DNA from: Owenia fusiformis | Taxonomy: Eukaryota | Direction: 5' to 3' | Assembly: GCA_903813345.2 (NCBI GenBank) | Contig: CAIIXF020000001.1 | Coordinates: forward strand, 23,932,001-23,996,000 | Length of the DNA stretch: 64,000 nt | In this document: in pieces, positions 2,029 through 58,500 of the stretch | How the letters are laid out: the number at the start of each line of letters is the position of its first letter | Position numbering within the stretch: position 1 is the first letter of the stretch | Notes under the pieces: model-generated | Database searches by the model: none | Told to the model about the DNA's origin: nothing | What the model saw: only the letters and a program-made list of their open reading frames with translations | Program-made: the position numbers and the translations under genes

Positions 2029-3725
2029 GAACATTGACAATTCTCAATTTACACAACAACAAATGGGTACCGACCGACCGCATTCGAACAATGGACATTC
2101 TTAGGGGTTGATCCCCAGCAACTACAATGCAATTCTAAATCGTTTTAAAACAATTAGGGTATATACAAATGAGGGAGATGTATTTATATTTATTGAAACA
2201 TTTTGGAGTATATTTGTACATTGTTTATATTGATTTTTAAGATTATCTAATAACATTGCAAGAAAAACTATGATGTTATGTTATTTTTCTAAGACCAGAT
2301 GACTTAGTCACATCAGTGTGTTACTTTACTTGGAAAATATGTAATGGGAATGGGAAGGCGCCAGTATGTACTGTAGACACCCCTGCTCTTTTCCATGGTT
2401 TAATATTTGATATCTTTGTATATTTTTGTTTTTTAAATGCAAAGTTTGAATCCATTGTGGAATTGAGTTATAAATTAATCGTCAATTGTAAATTGATAGT
2501 CTTATTAGTAATAAGGTGTTTGGCCATTCAAGATATCCATATGTTCCAATGAGAGATTTGTGCTACTGATATTAGCTCGACATTGCAAACAATTCACTGA
2601 ATCCATTGTGATAATTTTATAGATTCCGAAATCATGAACATGACCACTTTGGCCATTTGCAGATAACATGGATTTCCTCTTGGTCTTGTCTTCCCTCGTT
2701 AAACAAAACCTATCAGATTATCCACCGTCGGGAGGGAGGGATAACATCCTTACTTCATATTGCTTTTCACGTGTTTTAGAAAACTTTATAGGTTATTTAC
2801 TTGAAGGATTGAATATGGTGTTTTATTCCGAGGGAAAACATTATACTGACCCAAGGTTAATAGGATATTTACCGAGGAAACGTACGTTTAGCTCCCATTA
2901 ACATTGATCTGTAACAATATATCCTGTAACATTGTCATTCATATTACCCGAGGATAAAATCGATATTCAATCCCAACCAGAAATAACATCTTTGTTTCAC
3001 GAATAATCCATCTGAATGGTAATACTTTCGAATCAATGAATGTATATAAATGGCAGATATTTGTTTATGTTCTGTTTTAACAATTTACATGTATTTATGA
3101 TTTTTCCTTCATCATGTCCAAACTTAATATTTATTCTTTACATGAAATAGTAGTTTAAAATACTCTCTCCATAATTGCAAATATAAGGGGCTGTTTGAAT
3201 ATATTCTTGATCAGTTGATACATGGACGTTTACTGGGAGGGATGGAATATTAATTTTATTCTGGGGGGAAAATATGATATTGGCAAAGAAAACTATCATA
3301 TTGATCGAATGCGAGAGCCCGGCCCAAGTATCAATATGATATTTTCCGAATCAGGGAAAACATGTTATTATGGAATAATAAGCATTACTGAAGGAAATCA
3401 CACTTGAAGACTTGTATAAAAAGACTTCTCTTTTGCTGATTTCATTTAATTTTGATGTATTCATTGAAGAAATCAATTGAAGATGATTGTATAGTGTCAG
3501 CTATATCGTAGATAACCTGTACTTAGATATGTCGAACGTACTGTTTATATAAAATACACAATTCAAAAGGCTCAGCACAAGTGTGAATTGCATTAATGAT
3601 ATGTTACGTTACCCTTTCTCAGTCAATATTCTTTAATTTATAGGTTCCTTTCTAATTATATTGAATATATATTTTGATACTCTTCGGTTAGTTTCTTCCT
3701 ATGTTTTTTACGAGACACAACCAGC

Positions 3726-6700
3726 ATGGGAGTAAACCGCATCCTAAAATGTATATTCATACTTTACAAAGTGTCATTATTTTTATCATCGCAAGTTCGG
3801 TTTTCTCGAATCAAAATTAAGGAAACTGTATACTTGAGCAGTGATGTCTTAGATGCGAACTCGAGGGCTGAAAGGGCATCCAGTTTGATGGAATGTTCTC
3901 AGGTTTGCACCGAGGTATCTGCTTGCCGACGCTTCAACTTCAATAGAGACAACGGTACTTGCGTCATCTTGGGAAGCTACGCAGATGACGTTCCGACTAC
4001 GCTCCTTGTTGGTAATTGGATTCAAGGGGTTGTCCAAAGGAAGGTAATGTTATTTCAACTCAAAGAGATGTAAAAGAAAGGGGATTTATTATTTAGGTTA
4101 GAGAAAAATGTTAAAGAATCATTCAAATTCAACTGAAAAAGCCGAAATTGTAATTTGGTTCAATGAACGAAGGAGAGGAGTCACAAGAAAGTGGAGAGGT
4201 TAAGCAAATACGGTTTTTCAAAACGTATACGTAAACGCAAAGTACATTGAATCAACATAGGATTGTATCGCTTTAGTCTACTTCAGATACCCGTTCAACT
4301 TCAAAGTTGCGTGTTTAGAACGGGAGATTTTAAAATTTCACGTTGCTATCAACGGGAATCATTATACTCATGTCTGTTGAATACTATCCTTGCAATTTTG
4401 ATTTCGATGCAGAGTATAATTCTTTCTGAAGAAGATGATGTATGTTACGCATGATTTAACTCCAATAATCTTACGAAACGAGCTCGTTTGAAATATGTAT
4501 TAGAAAACCAGCTATTGAACTTCATCAATGGCATACTATGTAATCATTACAAGCTATGGTGTAGTCTAAACAAACACTAGAGCTGAACGGCTATTTATGT
4601 GTGAACTCTACACAAGGAGGATTGGCTCCCAGGATCGAAACTCGATATTTTCCAACAATGAAAACGTCGAAATGTCGTTATTTTCTGAAATTAAAACCGA
4701 CTATAAATTCAAAATAAACAGTTCAAAAGATTCGAACCAATATCTCGATCGTTTCTTGTGAGTTTTGGAATTTTTCGTTTGGAAATAAGACCAAAATTCA
4801 CGATTTAAATGTTGAAGTGAACAAAATGGCGGCTGTTTGAATTCGAATTTTGTATTACGACATACCCATATATGGGACAGAATATCGGTGGTGCACTCTG
4901 GGAGCCAATCCTCCTTGAACTCTACATGTATTTGTATAGGACGATTGATACGTTTAAGTTGCGTTTTGGATTTTATACGGTAGCTTAACCTCTCCAGTAT
5001 ATTATTACTTGGTTCATTGAGTCGACCAAAATGAAGGTGGTGTGGTCATTTGCTTGGATCAACACAATCAGTGAAAGGAAGAGTCATTAAAATCTAAATC
5101 ATTATATGTGACAAAGATTGGTTCAAATCACATTATCTCTGCATTGTGTATCATATTTAACTACACCCAGTATCTTAGCTGTATTATTTTGTAATCCAGA
5201 AACAGATTACGGACAGTTTCTCAGCAATGTCAATGGGTTTTATTATATTTAAAAAGTAGTATATGATGAATGTAAAAAGTAGGCCAAACTTAATTGTTTG
5301 TTAATGTTTAAAATGCTTTCTGGAAACTGATCCCTTTCTATCATCACAATAATCGAAAACACATATAAGTATGTCTCGTTATGTTTTACAGAAACAATGT
5401 GACAAATTCGGAGATTGTCATTGTCTTGTTCCTCATGGACAGTTTGATGAACATTGTACGGAATGTAAGTACGAGATTGACAGGGGTAGATCTGGGAACA
5501 AACAAGGGGGGGGGGGCAAATTTCAAGTCTGATAAAAAATATTCCGCGCTTGCGTTGAAAAAAAATTGAAAAAGGCCCATTTTCTTCAAAATTTGGCCTA
5601 AAATTAAAGAATAAGCTGGCCTTAAATAAAAGGTCCACTTATTGGGGCCTTTTAGGTTTTTTGGCCTTAAGGCCCCTGGGCCTGGGCTCCCCCGCCAGTG
5701 CAAATAAAATATAATTTGCAATATACATGTGCGCTTTTCTTGTGCAACGAGCTCATCCCAAGCAGAAATTCGATCGAAAGTATCATTAAAGTATATCCGA
5801 TCGGAGATTTTGAGAAAATAGACATGGCAAGGGATGACAAGGACGTCCAAAATATTCTAAAATTGATACAATTTTTGTCAAGGGCACTCTGACGACTTCT
5901 TGCCATCTTGTTAGACATTCAGAGATGCTACCTTTAATTTTTTATTTGAAAAACGAGCCTTCTTCGATCTTTCGTGATAATTCCTAACATTGTGAAATAG
6001 CTTGAATTGCTGTAACTATATAATGCTGTGGGCTTAAAGGTAATAAAGTAACATCACACTTACGTCCCGGCGATCATACGTCCAAATAATAGTTGTGTTT
6101 CAAATATTAATTGTATCACGATATACGAGACCAAAGTTAACGCTACCAGGGAGAATTGGACCTGCATGCCTTACTATTTATACATGTTTTTCTGTTTTGA
6201 AAAATTCGATATGTGATGTATATTTCTTAGTAATACTTACAAATATTTCGTTGCGGTTTTAGGCTTTAATTCGTAATTTCAATCACCGCCATCACTTTTC
6301 AAACGAGTTACTTTGAAATATCAAGACGTCATGCTATTCTCATACTTATATCGAACTTAATATGACTGTCATTCACCTTTTATCAAGCAGTAGAAAATTA
6401 ATTTGCTCCATGGGTGACAAAATGTTTCTAGTTTCCTGCTGAATGTCGAATCTCGCATCATACGAATGTAATTTTAGGCGATCTGTCTGCAGGGGGTGAA
6501 TGTTACTCTGGTATCGGGCATTCACTTGGCCTTTTGACAACGGTATAATAGTACACATTTATAAAACACATGTTTAGTGTTTAATACTATTGTACAGAAT
6601 ACTAAACAGCGTTTAATATGAACGAAAGCCGAGTTCGGTTTTTTTAATATTCATAATAAGGTGGTATTGTTCCACATGTACAGCAGCAATCTTTTCACTA

Positions 6701-9700
6701 ATAAACCTTGGCAGTCCCTTTGCTTACACAGTATTCATTCCTTTTTACTGTAACATGAATAGCAATCAAGCTCCTATGAAGCGTCCCAAAGTGAACCGGT
6801 GAACTCCTCGACCTCACTTTACACATTGAACAAGAGGCATAAGGCTATAAAATATTTTATAGCTGAGTGAAACTTTCTGGATAAAGTACTGGCAGAAGTG
6901 TTTAGATGAACAGCAAGATGACATTCTGGAGCTTTGTACTTACATTCTGTGGAATTGTGGGCTTTCACTGCTGTCTTGCTGGAGAATATGGGATTGTAAT
7001 AGATGCAGGAAGCAGCGGCAGTCGAGCCAGAATCTATACCTGGCCTGAAAGAACTTCTCTGAGTCAAACAATCCAACTTACAGAAGTTGGGAACAAAAAG
7101 ATCAAGCCAGGATTGAGTGCTTTTGTAGGGGACGCAAATGGGATAAGGGATCACGTGTTACAGCTAATTGATGCGTGCAAGGATAATGTTCCAGATGATA
7201 AACAAGTAGACACTCCAATTTATGTAATGGCCACTGCTGGAATGAGACTTTTAAAAGGTACCGACGCATTTGCAATCTACGAAAAGGTGGACGAGTTTTT
7301 ATCTGACAAGTCCTTCTCCCCATTTGATTTTCAAAAGGGAAACGCAAGAACGCTGTCGGGTGAGGAAGAAGGGGCATTTACCTGGATTGCTGCCAACCAA
7401 CTCAACGGCCTGTTTGGAAAGGGTCGCACCACTAACGAGACTGTTGGCATTATTGAAATGGGCGGGGCTTCAACCCAGCTTGCGTTTGTACCCCGGGGAA
7501 ATCTATTGGCTGACAAATTTCCTGTTTTCGTGGCTGGAAAGCATTATCCATTATATGTTCATAGCTACCTCTATTATGGTCAAGACTTTGGTATCCAAAA
7601 GATAAAGAACAATCTCTACCGAAACAGACCTGACGGCGCTTCCAACGTTATCATTAACCCTTGCATGTTAGTGGGTGATGATAAACTTATTGATATGCAA
7701 GGTGTGGAAATACAATACCAAGGTAGTGGGAACCCCGATGAATGTCTAAACCTCATACGAGATGAACTAGTGTATAAAAGCCCAGATCATCGGTGCTTCC
7801 CAAAACCATGTTCGATAGGACCGGTGTATCAACCTGAAATCCCCGCCGGTATGTTATTCTACGCCGTCTCCGCGATCATACACACTAGTAAGACAATTGG
7901 TGCGACATCTGCCGATAACGGCATGACCAATGCGGGAACCATTCTTGCTGAGAGTCGGGAGTTCTGTCAATTGGACCTGCAGACTGCGCTAAATAAAACG
8001 GGAGATAGTTATTCAGACGCTCGTTGTCTATCTGGACTTTTGATAAGCACAATGATGATCGAGGGATGGGGCTTTGACAAAGATGAACAAGTAGATGTAA
8101 GCGGAAATATAGCGGGCGAAGAGCTAACTTGGACACCAGGTGCTATGATCTACGAAGTTGAGAGAAGAGACAGAGGGCGCTCACTCAATGACGTCATCAA
8201 CGTAGGAACAATGCATCATATATTCTCCGGATTATATGGAGTTTTAGTGCTTGCAATATTGTCAACTATACACTTCATGTAGACATGGTTGGCACACTTT
8301 AAGGTACTGGTGGACGAAAACATTTACGAAATTGCTGTACCTGCACATGTTCAGAAAATAACATGACAGCATTTTTTCAAAAATGTTTTTGTTCCACGTA
8401 CCAGTATTAAAATAGATGAAAAGATGATAAGATCTAATTACATTTCACAAAATTTTGACAATGTACATCAAAGTTAATTATATGCGTTTAAAATCATGGA
8501 TCGCATTTTGAGCCACCTTGTCATCTAATAAAATATATGTACTGATCATACTTCAGATGTTTTGTCGGAATAACCAAATATTTTGTATAGATGTACATCG
8601 AAGTCACCTAGGCTGTCAGTTTGTTGTTTTGCATCATCAAATCGACCTCCTTCTTAGAGGAGTTGCAGCCATAGTTCAAACTCGATACGGAGTATCGGAG
8701 TTTGAATAACGCCTTCCAATATCCTCCTTGGTGAAATTATGAAATAAATATTTCCTCCGACGGAATTTCAGTCATTTTGTGTGTAACCAAAAGGGGACGA
8801 GTGAAAAATTGTTATTTGTATATGTATAACCTCAAAGTCCTCAGATTATTAATATTGATAACATTTTAGATATATATAGGCAGCTTATTATCGAAGGAAC
8901 TTATCAACTTGAGGCCTCGTTGTTATTTTTTCTTTTTCTTTTTGTTATCATTATCAATAATTACATGATAATATTGTTTATAATGATAATTACTATAAAT
9001 GCTATCTTGTACTTGGTAGACATATTTTGGTCTATACCTTTTGGCATTTTTTCGATTTTGTTTCGTTTTCGTAAGGATTTAGCCCTGGGCTTAGTACAAT
9101 GATGAATGACCATTCCTTTAAGGAATTGCTTTCCAAAATTTGCACGAGATGCGGTGTTAATTTTAGGAACCAACGACTGTAAAAGGAGTGGTCATTCCAC
9201 AATGCATTGAGTCTTCATTATCTTTTTCACACATTGCAAAATATCGTCTTTACAATCATCTAAAAGGTCACTATTTTTAACAGAAAGGTACATGCACTGT
9301 GTTTTCACTAATACAAAAGATGTACCGACACCGTAGGTTCCGCCGGGTTTCGAACCCAGGACCTTCTGCGTGTTAGGCAGACGTGATAACCACTACATAC
9401 ACTACGGAACCGTTTGGTTGTGGACCGTTCAACCCAGTGGGGTGTAATAAATATTGATTTCCCAACTTTTGTATACGCCAAAAGCTGAAAAGCCAATTTT
9501 GGGTCAAAATGAAAACAAATTGGGCCCTGCTAATACGTTTCAAGAAACAAGTACTGAATCGGGAAACATACAACATGTAATGGGTACTTCCGAAACATTT
9601 AGAATACGAACCGAGTTACTCACTTCGAGAGCCATGTTAGATTTTGAAACTTATCATATCAAAGATAGAGTTTATTGTCTTATCTGATGACTACAACATT

Positions 9701-12104
9701 CAATAACCCATATTTATTTTTTTCTGATATTATAAGGTTCCAAATAATTTATCATATGAAGAATAATTGTGTAAACCGTGAAGAAATTCCTTTTGAAAAT
9801 ATTTTCAAATAACTCTTGAAAATCGCCCCTTGCTGAAATCTTTCAAAAAACTCCAAGCGATTTGCTTTAAAAACACGAATCAGTAGAGCAATATCAATAC
9901 TAAAAGTGATAAAAACTAGGGTTCTTCAACAGGACATATTTCTGGATTTTCTGGGGTTTGGTTACTACTATAGATAAAACTGGTAAATTAGACGTATCAA
10001 ACCAAAATTCGAGTTAAACTAGCATCTGCACTATCATTGTAGTATGCCAGGTCACAGGGTCCCTTGGCGTTTCTAACAGTAGTGTCGTCCCCGGGAATTG
10101 GATGTCTAGTAGCTCTCATCTTGGTGACAGAAAACCCTTTATGGCGAGGTTGAATCAAATGTACGGATGGGTCACAGACACAGAAGGGAATATTGATGAA
10201 GAATGGATTCAAGTTGACTTTGATAGGACCGTGGTTGTCGATAGTATCTATACGCAGGTATCTTTGGAAGTAATATTACCCCCGTCCCGAGCTTTTAATT
10301 TCGATGGTGCAACATCGATCATTATTTTAGACATCGTCTTATTTTTAGGATTCTCAGTAAAATTTTACTCTAAGTTCCAAATATCACCGTTGTCATTCGA
10401 AGTTTTTGCCATTGTAATTGCAGGTGGTGGCAATAGGTCATGTGAATTATTTATCTATTTTTGTTTTACATTTATCTATTCCACTTCATGTATGATCCGA
10501 TGATATTCGTAAAGTATTCTTTATTTTCTTTCTACCATTTGTGCTTCAAAAAAATTTCTTTTAAGGGATGTAACGAGTGCATACAAATACGTTGGGTAAA
10601 ATCCTACAGACTCTCATATCTCTCAGACAGTGATAACTGGAAACAATACAACCATGTGGTCTATGGGCAGGTAATTTTCTATACTCGTTCTAAAATATAT
10701 TTTTTGGCTTGTACGAGGGTTGATCCAAATGTTCCGAACCGTTTGCGCTAAAAATCTTAATATTTAATGAATATTGTTCATATTTGGCCTCAACCACCCC
10801 ATATATAGTAGTTTCATTTTTTGTAAAAATAAACAATTAATTTGACAAGTAACATAGGTATCTGGTTACCATAGCAACATTACAACAGGGTATGTGGAGC
10901 AAGAGAATAGAGTTGGAAAAAAGTTGACACTTGAAGGGTGTATACAGGGTACCAAATGTATTTCAAATTTGCTAGTCATCCCTATTAATCAATTATTCTT
11001 TCATTAGACCAATTCTATATGTGTGATCTGATATCATACAATATAGTTGGCAAGTGTAATGTCATTGACCAGAAGAATGCCTTGCGCCAAAAGCAGTCAA
11101 ATTAAAGCATGAAATCCAGTTCGATTTCGACAATGCGCAATTCCATACCTATACTTACTCAAACGTTAATGAAAATATGCACATGCCTTGGCTTACCCTT
11201 GCATCCTTCTCTCTATATATGCCCCCATCGGCGTTTATCTTTATAATGACCTGAAGTACAAATTGCAAGACAAGACATGCTTTTGAACATTAAATTAAGT
11301 ATTGCTGTTCTTGAGTGGCTTTCTGAGACAGATAATGGTAAATTTAAAGATGTGTTTGATCAAAGGGTCAGCAGATATACTAACTTAGTATATCTGCTGA
11401 CCCTTTGATCAAACACACAAGTGTAAGGGGATAAGAGACTGTTTTGCGAAATAAATCAAGAACTAACAATGAAATATGGACAAATTGAAAAAATAATTGG
11501 TTAATAGGCAGGCATGACTGACACATTTGAAATTTGGTACCCTGTACCCTCTTTTAGAATCAACTTTTTTCCACCTCTACGTTATGTCGTACTCTTGCTC
11601 CACATACCCTGTTGCCATGTTACTATGGTAACCAGATACCTGTGTTGCTGGTCAAATTTATTGCATATTTTTTACACAAAATGAAACTGGTATTGATTGG
11701 GTGGTTGTGGCCAAATATGAACAATTTTCATATAGTATTAAGATTTTTAGAGCAAAAGGTTCGGAACTTTTGGATCAACCCTCGTATTAAACAGTTCTTT
11801 TAATAAATATTTTCAAGATGCCTTGCTAAAAGTCTACGTTGAACATCGAGTTTACTGATTAGACGACATCTATTTAAAACATTAAAGAATTTACAATAGT
11901 AAATAACCGTGATCGAATATATTTGTGTTTGTGTTTTTTCCATAGGTCCTCCCTGGAAATAGTGATGCTGCTACTGTAGTGTCAACTCGCTTGATTCCAC
12001 CCATTGTGACCCGGACTGTGAAACTACAGATCGCTGAAATATATGATGCTGCCGGCTTGAATAGAGGTGGCCTTCGATTGGACATGGCCGGTTGTGACTT
12101 TTGA
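3726..12104 (+). CDS. Probably secreted PAN/apple + short Cys-rich + F5/8 type C (discoidin) domain protein, 289 aa, 5 exons
   Basis: Exons 3726-4043 (hydrophobic N-terminus, PAN-like SLMECSQVC..CRRFNF...GTCVIL), 5392-5464 (KQCDKFGDCHC...EHCTE), 10043-10257 (SSSSH..ARLN..GW..EWIQVDF..IYTQ), 10566-10670 (WVKSYRLSY..W), 11946-12104 (GNSD..PPIVTR..LRLDMAGC-stop). All junctions are GT-AG with matching phases 0,1,0,0; total 870 nt. Confidence 0.75.
4193..4995. mobile_element. MITE, copy 1 (TIR GGAGAGGTTAAGC, 3-bp TSD AGT), interrupted by a nested element
   Basis: Terminal inverted repeats GGAGAGGTTAAGC...GCTTAACCTCTCC flanked by AGT/AGT; near-identical uninterrupted copy at 20838-21327. Confidence 0.9.
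4613..4917. mobile_element. Nested 305-bp MITE with 20-bp TIR and 9-bp TSD
   Basis: CAAGGAGGATTGGCTCCCAG...CTGGGAGCCAATCCTCCTTG flanked by AACTCTACA at 4604-4612 and 4918-4926; the empty site is visible in the sister element near 21249. Confidence 0.92.
6906..8282 (+). CDS. Ectonucleoside triphosphate diphosphohydrolase (GDA1/CD39 family ecto-apyrase), intronless CDS, 458 aa
   Basis: Apyrase conserved regions DAGSSGSR, ATAGMRLL, SGEEEG, EMGGASTQ, plus LYVHSYL.YG and WTPG; hydrophobic N-terminal signal/anchor and C-terminal hydrophobic tail. Confidence 0.95.
   Translation: MNSKMTFWSFVLTFCGIVGFHCCLAGEYGIVIDAGSSGSRARIYTWPERTSLSQTIQLTEVGNKKIKPGLSAFVGDANGIRDHVLQLIDACKDNVPDDKQVDTPIYVMATAGMRLLKGTDAFAIYEKVDEFLSDKSFSPFDFQKGNARTLSGEEEGAFTWIAANQLNGLFGKGRTTNETVGIIEMGGASTQLAFVPRGNLLADKFPVFVAGKHYPLYVHSYLYYGQDFGIQKIKNNLYRNRPDGASNVIINPCMLVGDDKLIDMQGVEIQYQGSGNPDECLNLIRDELVYKSPDHRCFPKPCSIGPVYQPEIPAGMLFYAVSAIIHTSKTIGATSADNGMTNAGTILAESREFCQLDLQTALNKTGDSYSDARCLSGLLISTMMIEGWGFDKDEQVDVSGNIAGEELTWTPGAMIYEVERRDRGRSLNDVINVGTMHHIFSGLYGVLVLAILSTIHFM
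9336..9411 (-). tRNA. tRNA-Val(AAC) gene with a 4-nt TGTA duplication in the D-arm (possible pseudogene)
   Basis: Minus strand GGTTCCGTAGTGTA[TGTA]GTGGTTATCACGTCTGCCTAACACGCAGAAGGTCCTGGGTTCGAAACCCGGCGGAACC: acceptor stem GGTTCCG/CGGAACC, anticodon loop CTAACAC, T-loop GTTCGAA, TTTT run shortly downstream. Confidence 0.85.
10714..11784 (+). mobile_element. Degenerate mariner-type DNA transposon with long TIRs
   Basis: TA|CGAGGGTTGATCCAAA...TTTGGATCAACCCTCG|TA, inverted arms over 200 bp, and internal decayed HDNA- and HP.YSPDLAP.D-like transposase remnants at about 11128-11260. Confidence 0.85.
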
Positions 12105-13761
12105 TGCATGGAACAGACACCATGTTTCCATAGCTCCATAGCATTTCGTTCAGCACATTCAAAGAACAACTCTTACACGTCCCACTTTTCGTCATCCATT
12201 TTTTTATTCGATTTCAGGACTATTGATTATTTTGTTTCGCAAAGTTAAATGCATGTTTCCCGTTACATCGTCAATTAAAGATAGGATTTAGAATTAGATA
12301 TTTAGAAAGTCTATGCAAGGAGGTCTTTGGTCTATGAATTACCACATACGCATATGTGAATCAATCATCAGTAGAAATGACAGTTGATAAGTTCAAAGTT
12401 GTTAACCGTTTCCACGATGACCATGTAATATTCACTGACAACATTTTACTTATTGAATGCTGGTTATTCTACGTTAAGAAAAAGTATTTTGGGTACTAAA
12501 GACAACGCCCTCTATCGAACAGTTGTTATAGTGAATCCTCCATTGCAGATTATACAAGTAAGAATCGATACATGTAGATTTTGACCTGGACATTAAAATG
12601 CATGTGTGTCGAAAGAGAAATGTCTTACGGCTAGACTAAGATCCTCTGACATTTATTACGAGTACAGCCAAGGCACAGCTAAACAAACTGACTTTAATCT
12701 GACTCGATGTGATTACATATATATATTTACATTTTTATTTGTGTAACTGAGGAGTGCTTTCTATGAAGGCAACTCATATGCAAAACAACTCTATTTGTCA
12801 GACTGTCACTGGGCAAGAAATGAATTTTGATAGATTAATTACTTGTACTAACGTTCGTTCATTGAGTGCATATGAGAGAAGGAGGTGATGCATATAGCCT
12901 GGTCCCAGGGGAAGTATTAGCCGATCAGGACAAGTCATATATCATAATGCCTAAATGGAAGTTCAATCCCTCGCTGTGGTATATCGATATTCGATGAATT
13001 ATGATCTGACGATTGAATCTCCAAAATAGTCTATGATATCTCGTTAATAATTATGGACTGCAAAGCAAGTAATAATTAAACGGTATTTTCGTACAAAAGG
13101 CAGATATTATATTAAAGTTAACGTTGAAGGAGAAAAAATATCTGGCTAAGGCACCTCTATTGGGATATTAGTTTGAGTTCATTGGCCTAATATATGTTAT
13201 AAATGGTACAGCGACAGTAGACTTCAAATTGGATGGGTAAGATCAAACAATCAGAAACCCGGTCTTGGAAATACCTAACGTAATAAATTAATTAAAATGG
13301 ACAATACGAAATAGTTCGTTTTTTTAAATAGATAAACATTAGTAATTTGTAACTGATATTCCTTGCAAGTTGCAAGGAGCGTATTTACTTCTTGGTAAAC
13401 AAACTACATCTCTGGATGAACTTTAAATTGACGGCAAAGGACCAGATGTGCCTCAGCTTCAATTCGGATCATTGCAAAAACAAACCTGCGATTCTGGAGA
13501 ATCGAGTATTTATAGAAAAAACAATCTTGGATCTAATAAGTAACACCAGTATATATACTTTTCCCGATCAGTTCATCTTTATGTTGAGTCTGTAATTGGA
13601 GAATTTGTTTCCTTAAAAACTAAAATAATTTCTCAACAAATCTAGCAGGCTTGGCGGTTAAAAAGTGTTAGTACGTGCAAACAGCGTGATAAACTACAAT
13701 CATTTAAACAAAAGAGGACTATGGATTTTGGGTAAATAATCCCAGCTCGTAGCCTAACACT

Positions 13762-14217
13762 ATGAATTCTTCAGTTTCTTCAGTAGAGTCGTTCATACTA
13801 GGAGACTCAAAGTTGGAAAATGATCTTCAGAACTGTACTGTCTATCTCGTAGTTGATCCGCAGGAAGATCATGAGAAACTCACGCATGAGAACGAACTTA
13901 TTTACGTCGTTGTTGTTGTGACGTTTTACGCACTAACGTTAATGTCACTGATCGGGTATCAAATAAGGCGATCAAAGAGGGACGGAATGGAATTGGATTA
14001 TTTCGAGGAATATGTCCAAAGGAAATCTATGCTAACAGCAGACAAGAAAGCGCAGAAAATAAACATGATTAGGATGATTGAATCACAATTAAGCGTGGCT
14101 AGCTCTCGGGCAGCTATGACAATACCAGAGGAAGCCGAAGTAGATGTAGATGCAGAGGACGTTGAAGAAGTTGCCGAGGAAAATGATAACGTTAATAGTC
14201 GTGTGTTTATTGTATGA
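13762..14217 (+). CDS. Single-pass membrane protein, KCNE/MinK-like, 151 aa, intronless CDS
   Basis: N-terminal sequons NSS and NCT with no signal peptide, one TM (LIYVVVVVTFYALTLMSLIGY), then QIRRSKRD..ELDYFEEYV and an acidic tail. The ORF is likely real; the family call is by eye. Confidence 0.6.
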   Translation: MNSSVSSVESFILGDSKLENDLQNCTVYLVVDPQEDHEKLTHENELIYVVVVVTFYALTLMSLIGYQIRRSKRDGMELDYFEEYVQRKSMLTADKKAQKINMIRMIESQLSVASSRAAMTIPEEAEVDVDAEDVEEVAEENDNVNSRVFIV

Positions 14218-15388
14218 CACACATCTGAGGTCGTAAATAACACGGCTAGCCGTTTATTGGATATTAGTGCCTAGGGTGTTAACACTTTAGTGATTGATTA
14301 TCAACGGATTGCCTAATATTTTCTTAGATTGTCCAATATGAACCTTTCAAGCACAAGATCAGTAAACGCATTCTTTCACATTTTACGTAAAAACTTATCA
14401 CTGCGTTCAAGTGGGTTTGAACAAGTAATCTCAAATTGTTTGAGATAAATCCACTTGTAAAAAGATTACTAGGGTATATTTAACCTTTCTCCTTCGACTC
14501 ACAATCTTGACTAATTGGTACCATTTTAAAGCCTCGTTTTACAATCATTATGTAACGAATTATATACAAAACATATTCTAGCATAAACATGGCTGAGTTT
14601 AGCTGTGATGAACAATATCAATTTCCTTTAAGACTTCTATATTCAATCTATTTATGAATTAAAGGAGTATGCGATGGTTGCTTTTGGGTTTACTGACATC
14701 GCCAGTTTTGCTGAAATAAAAATATATACTTTGCATTGATTGACCACGATAAAAGATATTAGATTAGTACTAAGAAGAGAACATTGGAGAATTTATGCAT
14801 TTAACGGTAACATTTGTAAGGTAAAACGTTCCCCCTGGCCTCGTGTTTACAAAGTATTTATCAGCAGTGATACCCTGGGTATACGAGCACAGTAAACAAG
14901 GTGAAACTTTCTTTTATAGAAATAAAATCAAAGTTTTGAAAATGGTAAAGTATTGACTAGTGGATATATAATTTTATCCCATACTTGGACCTGTTACAGG
15001 TACATAAAGCCGGTTTGTAAAAACTTATATTTTCATCAGCGGGCAGATATAGCTTTACGTCCCGCTCCGAGCGGGCAGATATAGTATATCTGCCCGCTAC
15101 GTCATAATCGCTAGTTCCCGTATTGGTTCTTTTTTGTAACTCCCGCATACTGTAAACGACAATGGAGAAAAACGCAGACGATCGCGATCTGTTTGATGCT
15201 TTAAAGAGGGGAAAGAGCAGTATGCCCCGTTAATCATCAAAGATTTGAACAGGAAAATCCGGCCACGGACAAGAATACAAACTGGACATGAATATTTTAA
15301 AATAATTCCACGGTTGGTTGCAAAGTTTCTGAACTTTGGCCAATTGAACAATGTGATTGGTATGGGATAAACAGATCATCCTATAGTC

Positions 15389-15502
15389 GGTTCAGGATAT
15401 TGGGATTATCCCTTGGCCAATATAATATATCTACCCTCGGGACCTACGGCCCTCGGGCAGATATATTATATTGGCCTCGGGATAATCCCAATATCCTGAA
15501 CC
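15389..15502. repeat. Long imperfect hairpin, probably the end of a non-autonomous repeat
   Basis: GGTTCAGGATATTGGGATTATCCC..GGCCAATATAATATATCT / AGATATATTATATTGGCC..GGGATAATCCCAATATCCTGAACC; related GGGCAGATATAG motifs at about 15041-15083. Confidence 0.7.
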
Positions 15503-16853
15503 TCTTATAGGATAATCTCTATATATATAACATATGATGGGGATTTTTAAAACATTCAGGCATTCAACTTATCGTGCAAATACACAGCACCTAATATAAA
15601 TACAGATTGTATTGTTTGTTGATCAACTCGAATTACAAAAAGTGAAACCACAGAATAAAATTGTTTGTTATTACGTTATATACAAATATTTTTGCATACT
15701 TTTTAAATGGTACGGAACGCTCAATCATTTTCCCTTGACATGACACATGTAGATTGAAGGCACCTTTGTTATAACACAGGTTGAAGTTGGGGCATCTGAT
15801 GACAACTCAAATTGTATGAATAAAAGGTTACAGTTAGACTACATGTAAGTCAAGATCGATTAAGTTTAACGTGCAAGTCGGGTCGTTTTTTAGATGACAC
15901 TCATCTGGGGTCTACATTGCACAAACTCTGCATTCGTTCGACTTCGCTACTTAAAAAGAGAGCTTCGTAGTTTGTAAGTAGACTCTGCGCGCAGGGTAGA
16001 ATGTTCACTTTTGTGAATATAAAAATCGAGATAGTCGATTATATTTTTTATAGATCACTATAGAGAGCGTTGTTAGCAATTAGCGATCGAGCAACAATGA
16101 AACAGATTGATCCCCTCGTTCTACCTGCATGCTATACTCAAGACTTCAGATATAATTGGACTGGTTAGATTTTTTTATCCGGATAACAACATACTATATA
16201 TATCGATCAGAAATATTCTTCACGACAACACAATATCATGATAATATTAACAGCAAATACTTCACACACATTCAAACAAGCTGCTAGAGGAGTATATGAG
16301 AACAAGCTAAGCAAACTATACTATTTCATTCGCAGGTACCCTTGAAGTTGGGGGACAATATTTGCAGTATCTCTTAATACAACACGATGAAGGATTAATT
16401 CATGAAACATATTGCAGTGCACTACATTGCAATAATGCACTTGTTTTAACGATTAATGTGCTTATTCTATTCACTTTGACGAATGTCCTATTTTATACAT
16501 ATAAAGGACAAAATGCGTATTTGCATAATACACGTAGGAATCAATAGACTGAATAACACTTTCTAAAAAACAATTTTCGAATGTGACATTTTGTATGATC
16601 TTAACAACGTAATACAAAGGATAAGTCGCCGTATGTTAGAAGCATCGAGACGAGAGTATAATCAATATATGTGATCCACTAAGGTAATTTCATGCAAGTG
16701 GAGTAGAAAAACTATAAGTACATTTTCTAAGGTAAATACAGTTATAGAGACTGCAATTAAAACGACGGGTAGTTTTCAGGTATTAATAGCAATGTATACA
16801 GACTGAATATTTCCAATCATAAACCATATAATCACCCGACGACTTGTGCAAAA

Positions 16854-18089
16854 ATGGCTGACAAAGAAGGGAGTAATTCCCCTGGTCAAAAAGAAGGGGA
16901 CAAGGAAAACAACGACAGTAATAATGATGAGAACGTTAATGAGAAAAATACCGACAGTGAAGGTAAAACTGGTGATAAAACACAGGACTCACTGGGTGAT
17001 AATCAAAATGATAAGACCGCAAATGAAAGTGAAAAGTCATCTAATAATGACGAATCAAAAACCGATGATGGAGATACTGAAAGAGACGATGGAAATAAGG
17101 AAGACGGTGGAAATAAAAACGAGCCAGAGAAAGATGTAAGTGAACAGAAAGACGAACAAAATAAAGGGGATGATCGGCAAGAATCTTTTCTAACAGATCA
17201 GAAACAAGACAATGATCCTGATGAAGACGAAAATGATGATGCAACAGCTACTAAAGGTACCGATGGAGAGAGCAATGATGAATATGATGAACTTCCTCTT
17301 GATGATGATGACAAACCACTTGACAGCAACGGAGAAGATGATGCTAATGAAAATGGTACAAAGAATGACAAGGACGAAGAAAAGGATAACGACGATAGTG
17401 ACGACAGAACATCGAAAAGCAATACCGAATCCGATGAAGAAGGCAATGAAGATAAAGAAAATAAGGAAGATGAAAATGAGAACGAAAATGACACCGATAT
17501 GAACAATGAACGTGAACAAGCTGATCCTAAAGATACTAAGGAGGTTAATAATACTAGTGATGAAAGCCCAGAAGAACAGAAGGAAACTTCAGATACTAGT
17601 GGTGAAGCTGTAAAGGAGGATCAAGAGACAATAGAAGATCAAAAAGAACCAAGTAAAGACAGTCAGGAAGCAATTCATGAAAATCAACCTGAAATACCAG
17701 ATAGCCAAGAATCTCTCATTGAGGATCAAGAAGAGGAAGACTCGGGTAGCCAAGAACCACCTGTAGAGGAAGAAAATAAAGGCGAAGAAGGTGAAGAACA
17801 AAATGATATTAACGAGCAAGAAAAGGAGCTCTCAGATGATGACTTTGTTTTGAAGCTCAACAATAACGACATTCAAGTGATGAAAGAGACAAAGGAATGG
17901 GAAAACACATATGGTGTTGACCTCGAAGCAATGGAAAAAGACATTGAACTCCTACTGTTAGGAGAAATGGACTTGAATAATGAGAACTTAACTGATGAAG
18001 ATAAATCGTTAGTTGAGACACAGATTAAAGAAATGAAATTGTTGACGTTGGATGAACTTCTTGAAAGAACAATGTCGCCAGAATTCTAA
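16854..18089 (+). CDS. Highly acidic D/E/N/K-rich low-complexity protein, 411 aa, function unknown
   Basis: Uninterrupted 1236-nt ORF in AT-rich DNA with an aaaATGG start context; non-periodic acidic sequence with a more helical-looking C-terminal about 85 aa. Confidence 0.7.
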   Translation: MADKEGSNSPGQKEGDKENNDSNNDENVNEKNTDSEGKTGDKTQDSLGDNQNDKTANESEKSSNNDESKTDDGDTERDDGNKEDGGNKNEPEKDVSEQKDEQNKGDDRQESFLTDQKQDNDPDEDENDDATATKGTDGESNDEYDELPLDDDDKPLDSNGEDDANENGTKNDKDEEKDNDDSDDRTSKSNTESDEEGNEDKENKEDENENENDTDMNNEREQADPKDTKEVNNTSDESPEEQKETSDTSGEAVKEDQETIEDQKEPSKDSQEAIHENQPEIPDSQESLIEDQEEEDSGSQEPPVEEENKGEEGEEQNDINEQEKELSDDDFVLKLNNNDIQVMKETKEWENTYGVDLEAMEKDIELLLLGEMDLNNENLTDEDKSLVETQIKEMKLLTLDELLERTMSPEF

Positions 18090-21400: not shown

Positions 21401-24400
21401 ATTAAAATGGGCCCAGTTTAGACATATTTATACCTATTTCGTGCATGACGTTCAGCCTCAAAATGATGTGCTGTGTAATTATTGTTATTTATAGGACTGT
21501 ATGACATGATTGGCAACGTCTGGGAATGGACGGATAGTGTCTACGAAGCACGTGGAGATAGGCATCGTTCGAGGATGGCCCAGGGGAAGGGACGTAAACA
21601 CGTTTTGAAGGGGGGTTCTTTCATAGACATAAGAGATGGTCTTCATGGGTTGGAAGACTCTAGCGTGTTGACGTTACCTGTAAGATGTGCTTCAAGGTGA
21701 GTAGTCATACATTACCATAATGAAACAACCTTCTCATGCTCATTAAATGTCAAAACTGACGAACTCCATCTGAGAAAATTTCACATCATTTTAGTTTTGC
21801 AAATGTGAATAGATGGAAGCTCAGTTCAAGTCCCGGGGATTCAAGCCCATCCATGATATCTTACTACTCTGTGGCGACCGGGGGTTCAATGGGTTCGTGC
21901 GAACCCCCGATCAAAATTTACAAACATTTTCATTACTAGTGTTTCTCATTGATTCCCACCAAACCAGTCTGGGATGTTATCGCATTGGAAATGGGAACCC
22001 ATTTCAGTTGATTCGATGGCATTCTTCTTACGATTGGACGTGGGGTTCGCTGTTTTGATGTCCTTTTGATCATCACGTGACAGGCTTACGTTTCCATTTT
22101 TGTATTCAATGATGATATAGGATTTCTAGCGTTCTGATTGGCATATGTGGCATGAATAATATTAATATATTAACATACAGAATAGCGACGTCACGTTGTC
22201 ACATTATATGACCTTGAAATTGGGTAAATATGAACCTGAAAACTTCCTAGGGACAATACTAAAAGGGTTGATGAATTGTCCCAAATGGTATAACTTATGG
22301 GGACAACACATCAGCCCTCAGCGAATCATTCCCATGATGATTTCAGAGCATATATGGATTGTACATTAATCCATAATAAATTGTCTCTAGGAGGTGGTGT
22401 AAATAGTGATCATTAACTCATTTGAATTTGTTGGGTGAAAAATAGATTGACACAGGGATAAATGATCAGATCTCCCTTTTTGTGAATATAGATTTCTGAA
22501 ATTCCATAGTTTGACGAGACAGCCTGTTGGCCATATTCATATTGGCAAGGTGGGATATTAATTCGGAGTAACTGAAAACTTTACTGTAAATCAAGATGCC
22601 CCTTAAGGCCCAAATCCAAGCTCAGCTTTGTTTATATTCTATTAATAATAAAGTCCCTTGGCTCAAATCAAACTGAAATCGACTGTGCTTCATATTTCTG
22701 TAGCCTATTTTGACCCCACCTCGCAGATGATATCTAATGTTCGATACTCTAAACATAGAAAGGAGTGGTATCGATATGGTGAACTTTTTGAACACATGTT
22801 TCTTTTAAACCAGTCATCAAAACATTTTGAAAATTTTACACATCGTCAATTTAATGGTCATGTTTTGGATAATAACATTATAATTTAGATTGTTTCAGAA
22901 AACACATTAGACACTTCTTTTGTTCTTGGAACCATATGTTCGAAATAAAATGAAACATTTATCCGAACCTCATTGGAACAAAACGACATAAACACAACGT
23001 GGTTAGGGCTCTCAATATTGTAATTGTACAAAGGAAAGTTTGGTTGATTTTAAAAAAGTATCTTGTAAGTGAAATAAAAGGTTTATCTTAATTTTTATCT
23101 ATTTTGGGGGGTTTTGTTTTAATTTTTTGCATACTTTTTGTAAAATCAACCAAAATTTCCTTTGTATAACTATAATATTAAGAGGTCTAAGAAAATGTTG
23201 TATATGCTATTTTCCTCCAACAAGCTTCGGAAAGTCATTTTATTTCATTCTCAAGAATTGGTAGAAAGGAACAAGAAACAATTGCACTAAAAACAAAAAA
23301 TGTTAACAAAAACAGTTATATAAAATATATAAAAATAATCATCACATTAAATTGTTGTCGATTAGTCAACATTACATAAAGGACCGTGTTTTTACAGAAT
23401 GTTTTCAATAATTGGTTTAAGAGAAAAACATTGTTGAATTCAGTTCACCATATCGATACCTATCCTTTGGCATTTCGCGGATATATATTGTTATCTACAT
23501 TTTACACCTACAAAAATCAGATTTAGTCCCCGGACTCAAGATTAATTACGAATTCATTTACATAGTTTGCCTTTACAATACATGTTTTGCCTTTCGTGCA
23601 TTTTCAAAGTAATGATTCAAAGAGAAGAGAGTACTGTGGTTTGACCGATAATATTACCTATTATTTTACTAAAGTTAGATTTATGGACAGAATACGATCA
23701 CATTACAAAAAATAGAGACTGCAACGAGATATTTAAAACGTTGACATCTGGTTAGTCTAAAGCAGTGTTGTATCTCACTAGTCTAAAGCAGTAGTATCTC
23801 ACTAGTCTAAAGCAGTTGTATCTCACTAGTCTAAAGCAGTTGTATCTCATTAGACTAAAGCAGTTGTATCTCACTAGTCTAAAGCAGTTGTATCTCACTA
23901 GTCTAAAGCAGTTGTATCTCACTAGTCTAAAGCAGTTCTATCTCACTAGTCTAAAGCAGTTGTATCTCACTAGTCTAAAGCAGTTGTATCTCACTAGTCT
24001 AAAGCAGTTGTATCTCACTAGTCTAAAGCAGTTGTATCTCATTAGTCTAAAGCAGTTGTATCTCACTAGTCTAAAGCAGTTGTATCTCACTAGTCTAAAG
24101 CAGTTGTATCTCACTAGTCTAAAGCAGTTGTATCTCACTAGTCTTAAAGCAGTTGTATCTCACTAGTATAAAGCAGTTGTATCTCACTAGTCTAAAGCAG
24201 TTGTATCTCACTAGTCTTAAAGCAGTTGTATCTCACTAGTCTAAAGCAGTTGTATCTCACTAGTCTAAAGCAGTTGTATCTCACTAGTCTAAAGCAGTTG
24301 TATCTCACATGTCTTAAAGCAGTTGTATCTCACTAGTCTAAAGCAGTTGTATGTCACATGTCTTAAAGTAGTTGTATCTCACTAGTCTAAAGCAGTTGTA

Positions 24401-55500: not shown

Positions 55501-58500
55501 GGTGACATAATACCATTTATATTGAATATTTACCAAGAATTGATAATAATTACAGACATATTTTACATAATACCTTATACATAATATATGTTGATAATAA
55601 AGCATGTGGCACACTTACCAGCCCTTGTTGCCCAGGAAGTCCATCACAAGGACATGACTGCGTAGCATAACTGGCTCTGGACAGGGGATACCTGCTTGGT
55701 AGATTCTGTAATTACAATGGATAATAATTATGCATTAAGAATAATACACACAAAAAAAGGCATACACTGTGATGAAAAAATTGCAGTTAAAATGAGTCTT
55801 GATTTTTTTCGAGCTCTGGTATTTCGAGAAGATAAGGTCGTTGTCAAATCGTTTTGATATTGCAAGTTTTAGATCTTTATTAAAGATGGGACTTACAGAG
55901 ACCCAATATCATCTATATTTATGTCATGTAACTGGTATTAGGTTAATAAGAGAATGGGAAGAATTAAATGTAGCTCAAATATTATATTAGGGCATGTTTC
56001 CTTTGTATTTCACCAAGCCTTTTTTTAGATAAAGTTATTTGTAAAGGTTTTGATTTAAGGAATTTAAAGGGTCAATAAATGAGAATAAATGAAATAAGAA
56101 TGGAATGCTCTTAACACAATAAAAGTTAACAGCTTGCAAAAAGGACATACATTTTCTACAAACCACTTGACTATGATATAATGGATTTGAAATAGAATAC
56201 TTAATTGATAGAAGTAATTTACATGTATGTGAAGTGTCACAAATCATATATAAGTAGTGAACAGTACAATTATAACAAATGCCATTGTGACATTAACATT
56301 TCTTTCGTGGAAACAGAATTATATTATAAGAACCAAACATTACAATAAATTGTTGGAGGTCTTGCATGAGATCCTTTTATCAATTGAGGTTACGGTTACG
56401 GCTAGCATACAAGAAACAAGTGCATTATATTACCCATAATTCATTGACCCACATGCCTAAATTCTTTCCATATAAGGCCATATGAGGATTTTGAACACTA
56501 TCACCATGAAAGAATCAAATTACCATGAGAAACTTTTTTATGAGGTCAATATTTTGACCTGCATAAGAAAAAGTGAATTCTAATAGAATGTCTACCTATA
56601 TGAGGACTATCATTCCGGTTGACCCAAAATGTACTTATCAATAATATGTTTTTTCTGTTTAAGTACACTTCACAATAACTGTTAGTTGTCTGTTTAATAA
56701 TCAACCAATATTGTTCTTTATGGCATTTAGAATAGTCAGTTAGTCTAATAAGTGTAATACATCAAAGTAAAGATTGTATGTTGTCATAAATAAAAGATAA
56801 AAAAAGTTACTAGATCCTACATACCCCGAGGGAATACTATCATTGCATTTTTATAGCACAAAAATGGCACTTTCCAAGATATTAGACTTCATGAAATGTT
56901 CAGATGGAATGGAGGATTATGATTCAGTGATATGTGATAATTGTGAAACAAATCCTGCGATAAAGAGATGCTCCAATTGTACATCAACATTCTGTGAAAA
57001 ATGCAAACAAGCACACGACAAGATGAAAGTGAACAAAACGCATAAATGGATTGAAGTTGATGAAATACCGAATAATGTAGCTCCAATACAAAGCAATCCT
57101 GCATTTGAACCTGAAGAAGTAAAGAAAAAAGATCCCAAGCTCAACTGTGATAAACACAAAGATCACACAATAAAATACTTTTGTGTTGATGATGAAGAGG
57201 CAATATGTGAAGCATGCTGCAACACTGACCATAGCTTACACAAGAAGATTACAATTGAGGAACAATCACTGACAGCCAAGAAAATGGCTGATGAGCTGAA
57301 TAATTCTGGAAAAGCAAGAATCAAGGCATTGGACAAAAGCATCTGCAACTTAAAGCAGCATAAAGCTGAAGTCCAGAATGAGCAGTTTAAGGTGAATAGC
57401 ACTCTGAAAGATGACAATCCAGTGGATATTGTCAGGCTTATCCCACATATGGAAGAATTGTTGGAGGAGTGGGCAGACAACAGTGCCATAGTAAAGGCTG
57501 GATGTTTCGGAGTGTACGACTATGTACAAGTAATTCCAAATGAAAATGATAATACAGGTGAACTGTATATGGATATGAAAAAAGGCATGAAGTATGTGAA
57601 AATGTCTAAACCATCTAGCAAAAGACACCTTAAACCTGATGGCACAAGTGCTAAAGAACAGACAAAAACAAACGAGGACATAAAAGTATGTGATGAATCT
57701 GGTCATGAACCACAACTGTATGCAAATGTCTCTATACCAACTAGCCCACCTTCTAAGGACACAAAAGATGATGAGCAGGTAATGAAAACACCAAAGCCAA
57801 CACCACGAGAATCCCCTAATAAGCCACAAAACCAACAAGATGATCCTGTACCTTTAGATAAGGAAGTAAGCGACGGAGTAAGGGAATGTGAAGCTAATTA
57901 ATAACAATTCTGGTAAATAGCCAACTGACACTTCAGATATGTATGAAATTGAATCATTGGGTGAATATGCTATGAAAATATGGAAATTCAGTGTGCGATA
58001 TGAAGTGATCAAATGAGAGGCATATTTTGATAATAAAATTATATCAATGCTAAAATATTATTCAAAACACATTAAGTTAAAATTTCGAAAGATAAAACTA
58101 CATATACATTTATTATTCATTGCCAATCATTGGTAATCAAAATTGGGTCTTTTTAACTGTTATTGTCAAGGGTTACTAAAGACTAAAAATGCACCAATTT
58201 AGACTAGAATGTGTATTCTCTGGTTTTGGACAATAATAATGTGTTACATTTTGGAGCATTTCTGGGGACTTTAACAAAATGCTAGTACCAGTCCTATTAC
58301 TTTTGGGACACCCTGTATTCATATTCTCAGAAACCTACTAGTATATGGTTCTTTAAGTTATAATTCTAAGAAATATTTAATTGTACATAAAATGTTATGT
58401 ATGGCCAAAGCGCCAAATACGTGATCGCGACAATATGATCTACTGCAAATAAATGTTGCTATTTATGACTTGTATATAAACACACTCTCTATTTCAAGTG

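Follow-up and report, generated by a model that had tools for sequence, protein, structure and literature searches.

The closest described counterparts of the gene reported here are the vertebrate KCNE1 to KCNE6 and the lamprey KCNE0 (MinK/MiRP), auxiliary potassium-channel subunits of about 100–170 amino acids (aa) that are typically encoded by a single uninterrupted open reading frame (ORF), lack a signal peptide and span the membrane once with the N-terminus outside. The coding sequence (CDS) of KCNE genes is typically a single exon. The proteins carry two N-terminal sequons, E-x-L-Y-V at the outer end of the transmembrane (TM) segment, F-[FY] in the middle of the helix and I-R-x-x-K at its inner end; one turn beneath the membrane comes D-x-[FY]-x-x-Y-[ILV], and a cytosolic helix follows. 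The same features, including comparable spacing between sequons and TM segment, were found or predicted in the family of P0001, a KCNE-like protein encoded in a 64,000-nucleotide stretch of Owenia fusiformis DNA (contig CAIIXF020000001.1, positions 23,932,001 to 23,996,000; this whole stretch is called the window hereafter). Judged from the comparisons below, this family, whose species-named members are molluscs, is probably a true homologue of KCNE that forms a divergent branch.

According to passages in Commun Biol 2024 (PMC11659587) and eLife 2026 (PMC13516689), a kcne gene has yet to be identified in any invertebrate and the family originated in early vertebrates, and a passage in PMC3206303 says that the Ciona genome holds no KCNE-like gene. 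Full-text literature searching gave no title or abstract on a mollusc or other invertebrate KCNE gene among the matches listed, and two of the matching papers name molluscs in passing only. Besides, MPS-1 to MPS-4 of C. elegans are described in an excerpt of eLife 2026 (PMC13516689) as nematode-specific KCNE-like proteins. They are also single-pass proteins of an invertebrate and are likened to P0001 by description only; no match with a nematode species name was found in the homologue searches, in which most matches carry no species name.

The P0001 ORF extends without interruption from an ATG at 13762 to a TGA at 14215–14217 on the forward strand (151 codons), and the same frame carries a stop 9 nt ahead of the ATG. 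The contig is 62 Mb long, and the window, with a GC content of about 35%, is eukaryotic. Five ATG-started ORFs of at least 151 aa were observed in the window, compared to 0.02 per window in 200 mononucleotide shuffles, none of which held more than one. An exhaustive phmmer search with P0001 against 1.84 billion representative sequences (E ≤ 0.001) yielded 27 homologues with E-values of 9e-14 to 5.6e-4, the best being P0002 (9e-14) and P0003 (1.9e-13; 57% identity over the core). Full-length homologues were similar in layout to the single uninterrupted ORF of P0001. Its conservation in 27 other proteins shows that the ORF codes for protein and did not arise by chance; on this comparative sequence evidence it is a real, conserved gene, and its conservation across the family argues that it is functional. 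When all six frames of the window were scanned with the hidden Markov model (HMM) of the family, no second copy was detected, the next best ORF having an E-value of 5.5.

Two points could be taken in favor of a chance ORF or an unexpressed pseudogene, and both bear on expression. Two raw RNA-seq runs under the same species label, of which about 6% each was read, contained no reads over 11804–14818 including the ORF, and none of the sequence sources listed for the locus is on record as RNA. The Logan contig sets X1 and X2, which are of uncertain kind, span 12223–14972 without a gap and thus take in 1.5 kb ahead of the ATG, and DNA and RNA are therefore not separable in them. On the other hand, only the said small part of the two runs was read, an ORF of this length is rarely expected in shuffled sequence, and the homologues share an invariant core. 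The contigs, which come from other individuals, differed from the window at three positions within the ORF. The only difference in the core, 13893 C>T, is synonymous (N44), whereas both amino acid changes (14134 G>A, A125T; 14139 A>C, E126D) fall in the variable tail. A chance or dead ORF is therefore considered very improbable.

The sole hydrophobic stretch of P0001 was found at residues 44–68, with the best 19-residue window at 46–64 (Kyte-Doolittle mean 2.47), and the protein is thus predicted to lack an N-terminal signal peptide. The 15 residues preceding the TM segment contain one K/R and six D/E, while the first 15 residues after it contain four K/R and three D/E, all four basic residues falling within the first seven (Q-I-R-R-S-K-R). 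These acidic and basic flanks predict an orientation with the N-terminus outside and the C-terminus inside, and P0001 is thereby predicted to agree with KCNE topology: single-pass, N-terminus outside, and without a cleavable signal peptide. Like KCNE proteins, it also contains N-terminal sequons, N2-S-S and N24-C-T, at which glycosylation is putative. In the preliminary description of this DNA, made from the sequence alone, an intronless 151-aa ORF with the sequons NSS and NCT, no signal peptide and one TM segment had been reported, and all of this was confirmed by the ORF scan and hydropathy analysis. The segment quoted there, ELIYVVVVVTFYALTLMSLIGYQIRRSKRDGMELDYFEEYV, corresponds to residues 45–85.

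An AlphaFold2 (AF2) model of P0001, built on the 21-sequence family alignment A2, had a mean pLDDT of 72.5. Residues 1–36 were predicted to be disordered (pLDDT below 50 over 1–30) and residues 37–73 to form a helix with pLDDT 89–98, which breaks off at D74-G75; a further helix (residues 76–114) and a disordered acidic tail come after it. In layout, the second helix corresponds to the C-terminal helices predicted for KCNE1 at 79–114, as given in part of PMC11138074. The tail of P0001 contains T120-I-P-E-E, which resembles an acidic motif, [ST]-I-P-[DE]-E, found at or near the C-terminus in the family and reading L-E-S-I-P-D-E-E-[VA] in many gastropod members. In several members the C-terminus is hydrophobic or of the T/V type and might serve as a PDZ ligand.

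Word-index searches with family alignments enlarged the family to 61 proteins; alignments A1 and A3 matched 43 and 8 proteins, respectively, at E ≤ 10. Species names were attached to 20 of the 43 proteins in the alignment-based search, and all 20 were mollusc proteins recorded as 'hypothetical', 'uncharacterized' or 'unnamed'. They belong to Lottia, Patella, Littorina, Biomphalaria, Lymnaea, Elysia, Gigantopelta, Nucella, Potamilus and other genera. Lineage look-up placed Lottia in Gastropoda and Potamilus in Bivalvia, and the remaining 18 species-named relatives are presumably gastropods. In a FastTree analysis of the core, in which all rows were retained, P0001 grouped with P0003, P0006, P0007 and P0027; the gastropod clade and the clade that holds the bivalve sequence were separate from this group.

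Conservation was examined in an alignment of 59 sequences, from which P0055 and P0056 were left out as fragments. Y48, V49, V52 and Y56 (P0001 numbering) were shown to be invariant, and about 20 further core columns were more than 90% conserved. Residues kept in at least 54 of the 59 sequences were N24/T26, D36, N44, E45, L46, F55, A57, L60, M61, Q67 and I68, and, in the part following the TM segment, [KR]69 (59/59), [RK]70, R73, [DE]79 (57/59), Y80, [YF]81 (59/59), E83 and R87; Y84 was found in 50 of 59. The family N-x-[ST] sequon with which N24 of P0001 aligns is similarly well preserved, with N in 55 and T/S in 56 of the 59 sequences. Most members have one sequon exactly 22 residues before the invariant Y, compared to 24 in P0001, and a second one 30–46 residues before it (46 in P0001). 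In KCNE1, the two sequons are located 41 and 20 residues before Y46, at sites 5–7 and 26–28 according to part of PMC11138074.

The residue-level comparison with KCNE1 was taken from the alignment obtained with the A2 profile, in which KCNE1 chain numbering equals residue numbering. E45, Y48, V49, V52, F55 and I68 of P0001 were aligned with E43, Y46, V47, V50, F53 and I66 of KCNE1, and R69, K72, D79, F81, Y84 and V85 with R67, K70, D76, F78, Y81 and I82. Thus, in the juxtamembrane segment D76-P-F78-N-V-Y81-I82 of KCNE1, the aspartate, the aromatic residue, the tyrosine and the aliphatic residue are kept in D79-Y-F81-E-E-Y84-V85 of P0001. Excerpts from PMC11138074 report that saturation mutagenesis of KCNE1 revealed regions intolerant to variation at 61–73 and 77–82, that F78, Y81, I82 and W87 are functionally constrained, and that D76N is a gating variant. 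The residues shared by KCNE1 and the P0001 family are therefore ones that matter for KCNE1 function.

The family was compared to 24,736 Pfam families, among which ISK_Channel (PF02060), the KCNE family, has a curated cut-off of 22.1 bits. ISK_Channel was the commonest match, found for 16 of 28 members at E ≤ 1 and for 23 of the 41 members scanned in all. The matches always fell in one register, at profile positions of about 16–106 of 126, and covered both sides of the TM segment. Three of the 41 members reached the cut-off: P0003 (22.9 bits), P0004 (22.4 bits) and P0058 (22.3 bits). P0003 belongs to the same clade as P0001, and P0004 and P0058 belong to another one; as the latter two form one 90% cluster, the three passes amount to two lineages in two clades. 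Most family members, P0001 included, were below the cut-off. Since P0001 itself fails it, the protein was not filed as a member of ISK_Channel and is recorded as KCNE-like, with close homologues that just reach the threshold. The sole Pfam match of P0001, DUF2756 (E 0.086), was below the cut-off of that family and was rejected.

The family was also searched against 177,635 distinct sequences in the PDB (matches at E ≤ 10). Profile A1 (28 sequences) matched only KCNE2 (E 0.65), the three matches of profile A2 (21 sequences) were all KCNE1 sequences (E 0.58–1, bias 0.0), and profile A5 (30 sequences, built without P0003, P0004 and P0058) matched only KCNE2 (E 0.17). In addition, P0004 as a single sequence matched only KCNE1 (E 0.85–1.1). 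P0003 matched KCNE1 on the core (E 0.06–0.09), together with one lipase chaperone and with type III polyketide-synthase chains, 21 in number, that matched mostly on the tail; its three KCNE1 chains ranked behind 12 chalcone-synthase chains. The chalcone-synthase matches lie on the non-conserved C-terminal tail and were judged spurious. No single cross-family E-value in the PDB is significant. Nevertheless, KCNE had been named in advance and was the only family returned by profiles A1, A2 and A5, in one register, which at sequence level is hard to ascribe to chance.

For P0001 and the Lottia member P0014, the nearest clusters in the ESM Atlas were chordate clusters in which 13–40% of the members carry PF02060. 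They were matched with scores of 0.94–0.95 and with 213–216 of 256 features shared; according to the service, about one shuffled protein in 100 attains 0.95; 15–16 of the 30 matches belonged to the PF02060-carrying set. The structural neighbours returned by the service were all below its bar for naming a family. Taken together, these checks point weakly to KCNE; at the level of sequence, profile and language model, the similarities single out KCNE among the named families.

A number of results weigh against KCNE homology and leave room for another explanation, namely that these proteins form a lineage-restricted (lophotrochozoan) family of single-pass glycoproteins without KCNE ancestry. The resemblance would then be convergent or compositional, arising from a beta-branched and aromatic TM segment, a basic stop-transfer cluster and an acidic-aromatic helix, and the proteins could act, for example, as trafficking or sorting adaptors or as subunits of another membrane complex. 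P0001 itself showed no ISK_Channel match at E ≤ 10, and its only match in the PDB was the unrelated IGF2BP1 (E 0.26), with no KCNE chain. Profile A4 (8 sequences) matched nothing in the PDB, KCNE3, KCNE4 and KCNE5 chains were absent from all PDB matches, and a Foldseek search of the PDB with the AF2 model gave no matches, as is expected for a two-helix model. Among the named rows of the word-index and phmmer searches, no vertebrate-named or KCNE-named protein was found. All cross-family scores are marginal (11.7–22.9 bits in Pfam, E 0.06–1 in the PDB), and each of the three ISK_Channel passes exceeds the cut-off by less than 1 bit.

The sequence itself also departs from KCNE. The proline of the KCNE D-P-[FY] is Y in the P0001 family, P0001 has one residue more than KCNE1 between the TM segment and the conserved D, and F57-T58-L59 of KCNE1, which are gating determinants, align with the differing T59-L60-M61. 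The preliminary description had proposed that P0001 follows the KCNE motif pattern and spacing; this holds for the basic cluster, D, aromatic residue, Y and aliphatic residue, but not for the proline or for the spacing, owing to the inserted residue. Besides, the family has conserved features of its own, namely R87, N-E-L-L before Y-V, Q67 and the C-terminal [ST]-I-P-[DE]-E, of which the last three are not known from KCNE.

Other families also match the same proteins, including SMIM5_18_22 and EphA2_TM (E 0.008–0.1). The second commonest Pfam match was RCR (PF12273), the family of the fungal RCR1/2, which are likewise small single-pass proteins. At E ≤ 1 it was found for 13 of 28 members and scored highest (19.9 bits) on P0002, for which it outscores ISK_Channel, so that a TM segment plus basic composition alone can give scores nearly as high as those of ISK_Channel. 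RCR is, however, a fungal family whose match does not include the N-terminal side and is confined in most members to profile positions of about 4–46, that is, the TM segment and basic stretch (to 67–83 in two members), and its best score stays below its gathering cut-off of 27.8 bits. Membership in RCR was rejected; the match was treated as compositional, and RCR is presumably unrelated.

Because the cross-family scores are marginal and noise driven by the TM segment reaches nearly as high, a family unrelated to KCNE keeps some probability as the main rival, although we regard it as rather unlikely. Of the 24,736 families, ISK_Channel was matched more often than any other and alone attained its own cut-off, RCR falling at least 8 bits (rounded) short; the KCNE chains were the sole PDB matches of three profiles; and the ESM Atlas agrees for two distant members. 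Moreover, the matches coincide with constrained KCNE1 residues outside the membrane, for which composition offers no explanation. The proposal of a divergent KCNE homologue in the preliminary description thus stood in part. ISK_Channel as the commonest match, PDB profiles that returned only KCNE1 or KCNE2, and the shared constrained residues speak for it, while P0001 has no such match of its own and the scores are marginal. The Pfam check suggested there was likewise divided, with passes among the relatives of P0001 and none for P0001 itself.

Taken as a whole, the explanation towards which we lean slightly is that this presumably single-exon gene encodes a single-pass glycoprotein of a divergent KCNE branch that would act as a subunit of a voltage-gated potassium (Kv) channel. 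The chances appear about even that P0001 is a single-pass auxiliary subunit of such a channel, most plausibly of the KCNQ1 type. The glycosylated N-terminus would face outward, and the TM helix from E45 to I68 would pack against the voltage-gated K+ channel, most plausibly one of the KCNQ1 subfamily. Just beneath the membrane, the basic cluster, together with the D-Y-[YF]-x-E-Y-[LV] helix, would contact the cytosolic gating region of the channel and tune its gating. What we infer is shared descent with KCNE, binding to a channel, which channel that would be, and any effect on its gating. According to part of a preprint (10.1101/2025.09.21.677649), the KCNQ1 and KCNQ2 subfamilies are both broadly distributed in protostome and deuterostome invertebrates; KCNQ1 being widespread in protostomes, a candidate partner for P0001 exists.

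It is improbable, though conceivable, that the family is truly homologous to KCNE and either has a partner other than KCNQ1, such as an ERG, Kv4, Kv2/3 or HCN-type channel, or has lost its channel function. Vertebrate KCNE2 and KCNE3 can modulate ERG, Kv4, Kv2/3 or HCN-type channels in heterologous systems. For KCNE3, an excerpt of PMC11659587 specifies modulation of Kv2.1, Kv3.4, Kv4.2 and Kv4.3 in such systems. The residues at the 57–59 triplet of KCNE1 differ in the P0001 family, and Ciona KCNQ1 is reported in part of PMC3206303 not to be properly modulated by mammalian KCNEs, so that the pairing of KCNQ1 and KCNE is not universal. In contrast, D-x-[FY]-x-x-Y-[ILV], the shared segment with the strongest conservation, makes contact with KCNQ1 and calmodulin in the model of the KCNE1 complex, as described in part of PMC11138074. 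No result obtained here favors one partner over another.

Whether the P0001 family is the protostome counterpart of KCNE is, in our estimate, evenly poised. If it is, KCNE subunits would date back to at least the protostome-deuterostome ancestor, whereas current papers place their origin in early vertebrates. Having originated at about the time when the KCNQ1 subfamily appeared, they would later have been lost, or have become unrecognizable through divergence, in tunicates, in insects and perhaps in nematodes. A mollusc family with KCNE topology, sequon layout and gating-critical juxtamembrane residues would make the origin of KCNE older by hundreds of millions of years and provide a candidate partner for the invertebrate KCNQ1 subfamily, and KCNQ1-type currents in molluscs would be tuned by a single-pass beta-subunit. 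The 'older bilaterian origin' put forward in the preliminary description goes beyond the data, because all named relatives come from molluscs. For re-annotation, at least 20 mollusc proteins with species names, now 'hypothetical', are flagged here.

One of the chordate clusters in the ESM Atlas is automatically named 'Small integral membrane protein 34A', with PF02060 on 13% of its members, and was found to be as close to the mollusc proteins as the annotated KCNE clusters. This gives a lead that vertebrate SMIM34 may itself be KCNE-like in sequence. Literature searching on SMIM34 gave no title or abstract on channels among the matches listed.

Table 1. Features of the KCNE-like gene and of the rest of the window (positions are those of the window)
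Feature	Position	Strand	Description
KCNE-like protein P0001 CDS, complete, single-exon	13762..14217	+	151 aa and stop; 27 homologues; family-profile score 116 bits
N-terminal segment, predicted extracellular, residues 1–44	13762..13893	+	Disordered, acidic; sequons N2-S-S and N24-C-T
TM helix core, residues 45–68 (E-L-I-Y-V-V-V-V-V-T-F-Y-A-L-T-L-M-S-L-I-G-Y-Q-I)	13894..13965	+	Hydropathy, AF2, conservation; aligned to KCNE1 43–66
Cytosolic juxtamembrane segment, predicted, residues 69–87	13966..14022	+	R-R-S-K-R, then D79-Y-F-E-E-Y84-V85; conservation, KCNE1 alignment
Second helix, predicted, cytosolic, residues 76–114	13987..14103	+	After the break D74-G75; AF2 on alignment A2
C-terminal tail, disordered, acidic, residues 115–151	14104..14214	+	Contains T120-I-P-E-E; last residues F-I-V
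First polyadenylation-signal-like hexamers 3′ of the stop	14658..14720	+	ATTAAA at 14658, AATAAA at 14715; candidate sites from a pattern scan only
High-copy repeat	14819..15622		Directly 3′ of the KCNE-like gene
PAN-domain exon	3678..4073	+	E 6.3e-8
GDA1/CD39 nucleoside phosphatase (apyrase/ENTPDase)	6906..8282	+	Uninterrupted 458-aa ORF; Pfam E 8.2e-77; hydrophobic C-terminal end
D/E/N/K-rich ORF	16773..18089	+	438 aa, extremely D/E/N/K-rich; no Pfam match; AT skew +0.29
Tandem repeat	23795..24166		24-nt unit encoding Y-L-T-S-L-K-Q-L about 15 times in one frame
N runs	~48.9–49.4 kb and 51.4–51.9 kb		Two assembly gaps, 1000 N in total
B-box zinc finger ORF	56801..57901	+	366 aa; E 2.8e-10

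The repeat that directly follows the KCNE-like gene had a contig word depth of 1.7e4–8.5e4, compared to about 10–190 in its flanks. The two RNA-seq runs that had no reads over the ORF did yield reads here. RNA reads matched the repeat at 95–99% identity, most of them only partly lying on it, and many internal joints were seen; it looks like a transcribed transposable-element family. The depth of the X2 contigs climbs over the start of the D/E/N/K-rich ORF. Further downstream, the GC content dropped to 0.26 in the bins containing the two N runs, which is caused by the runs themselves.

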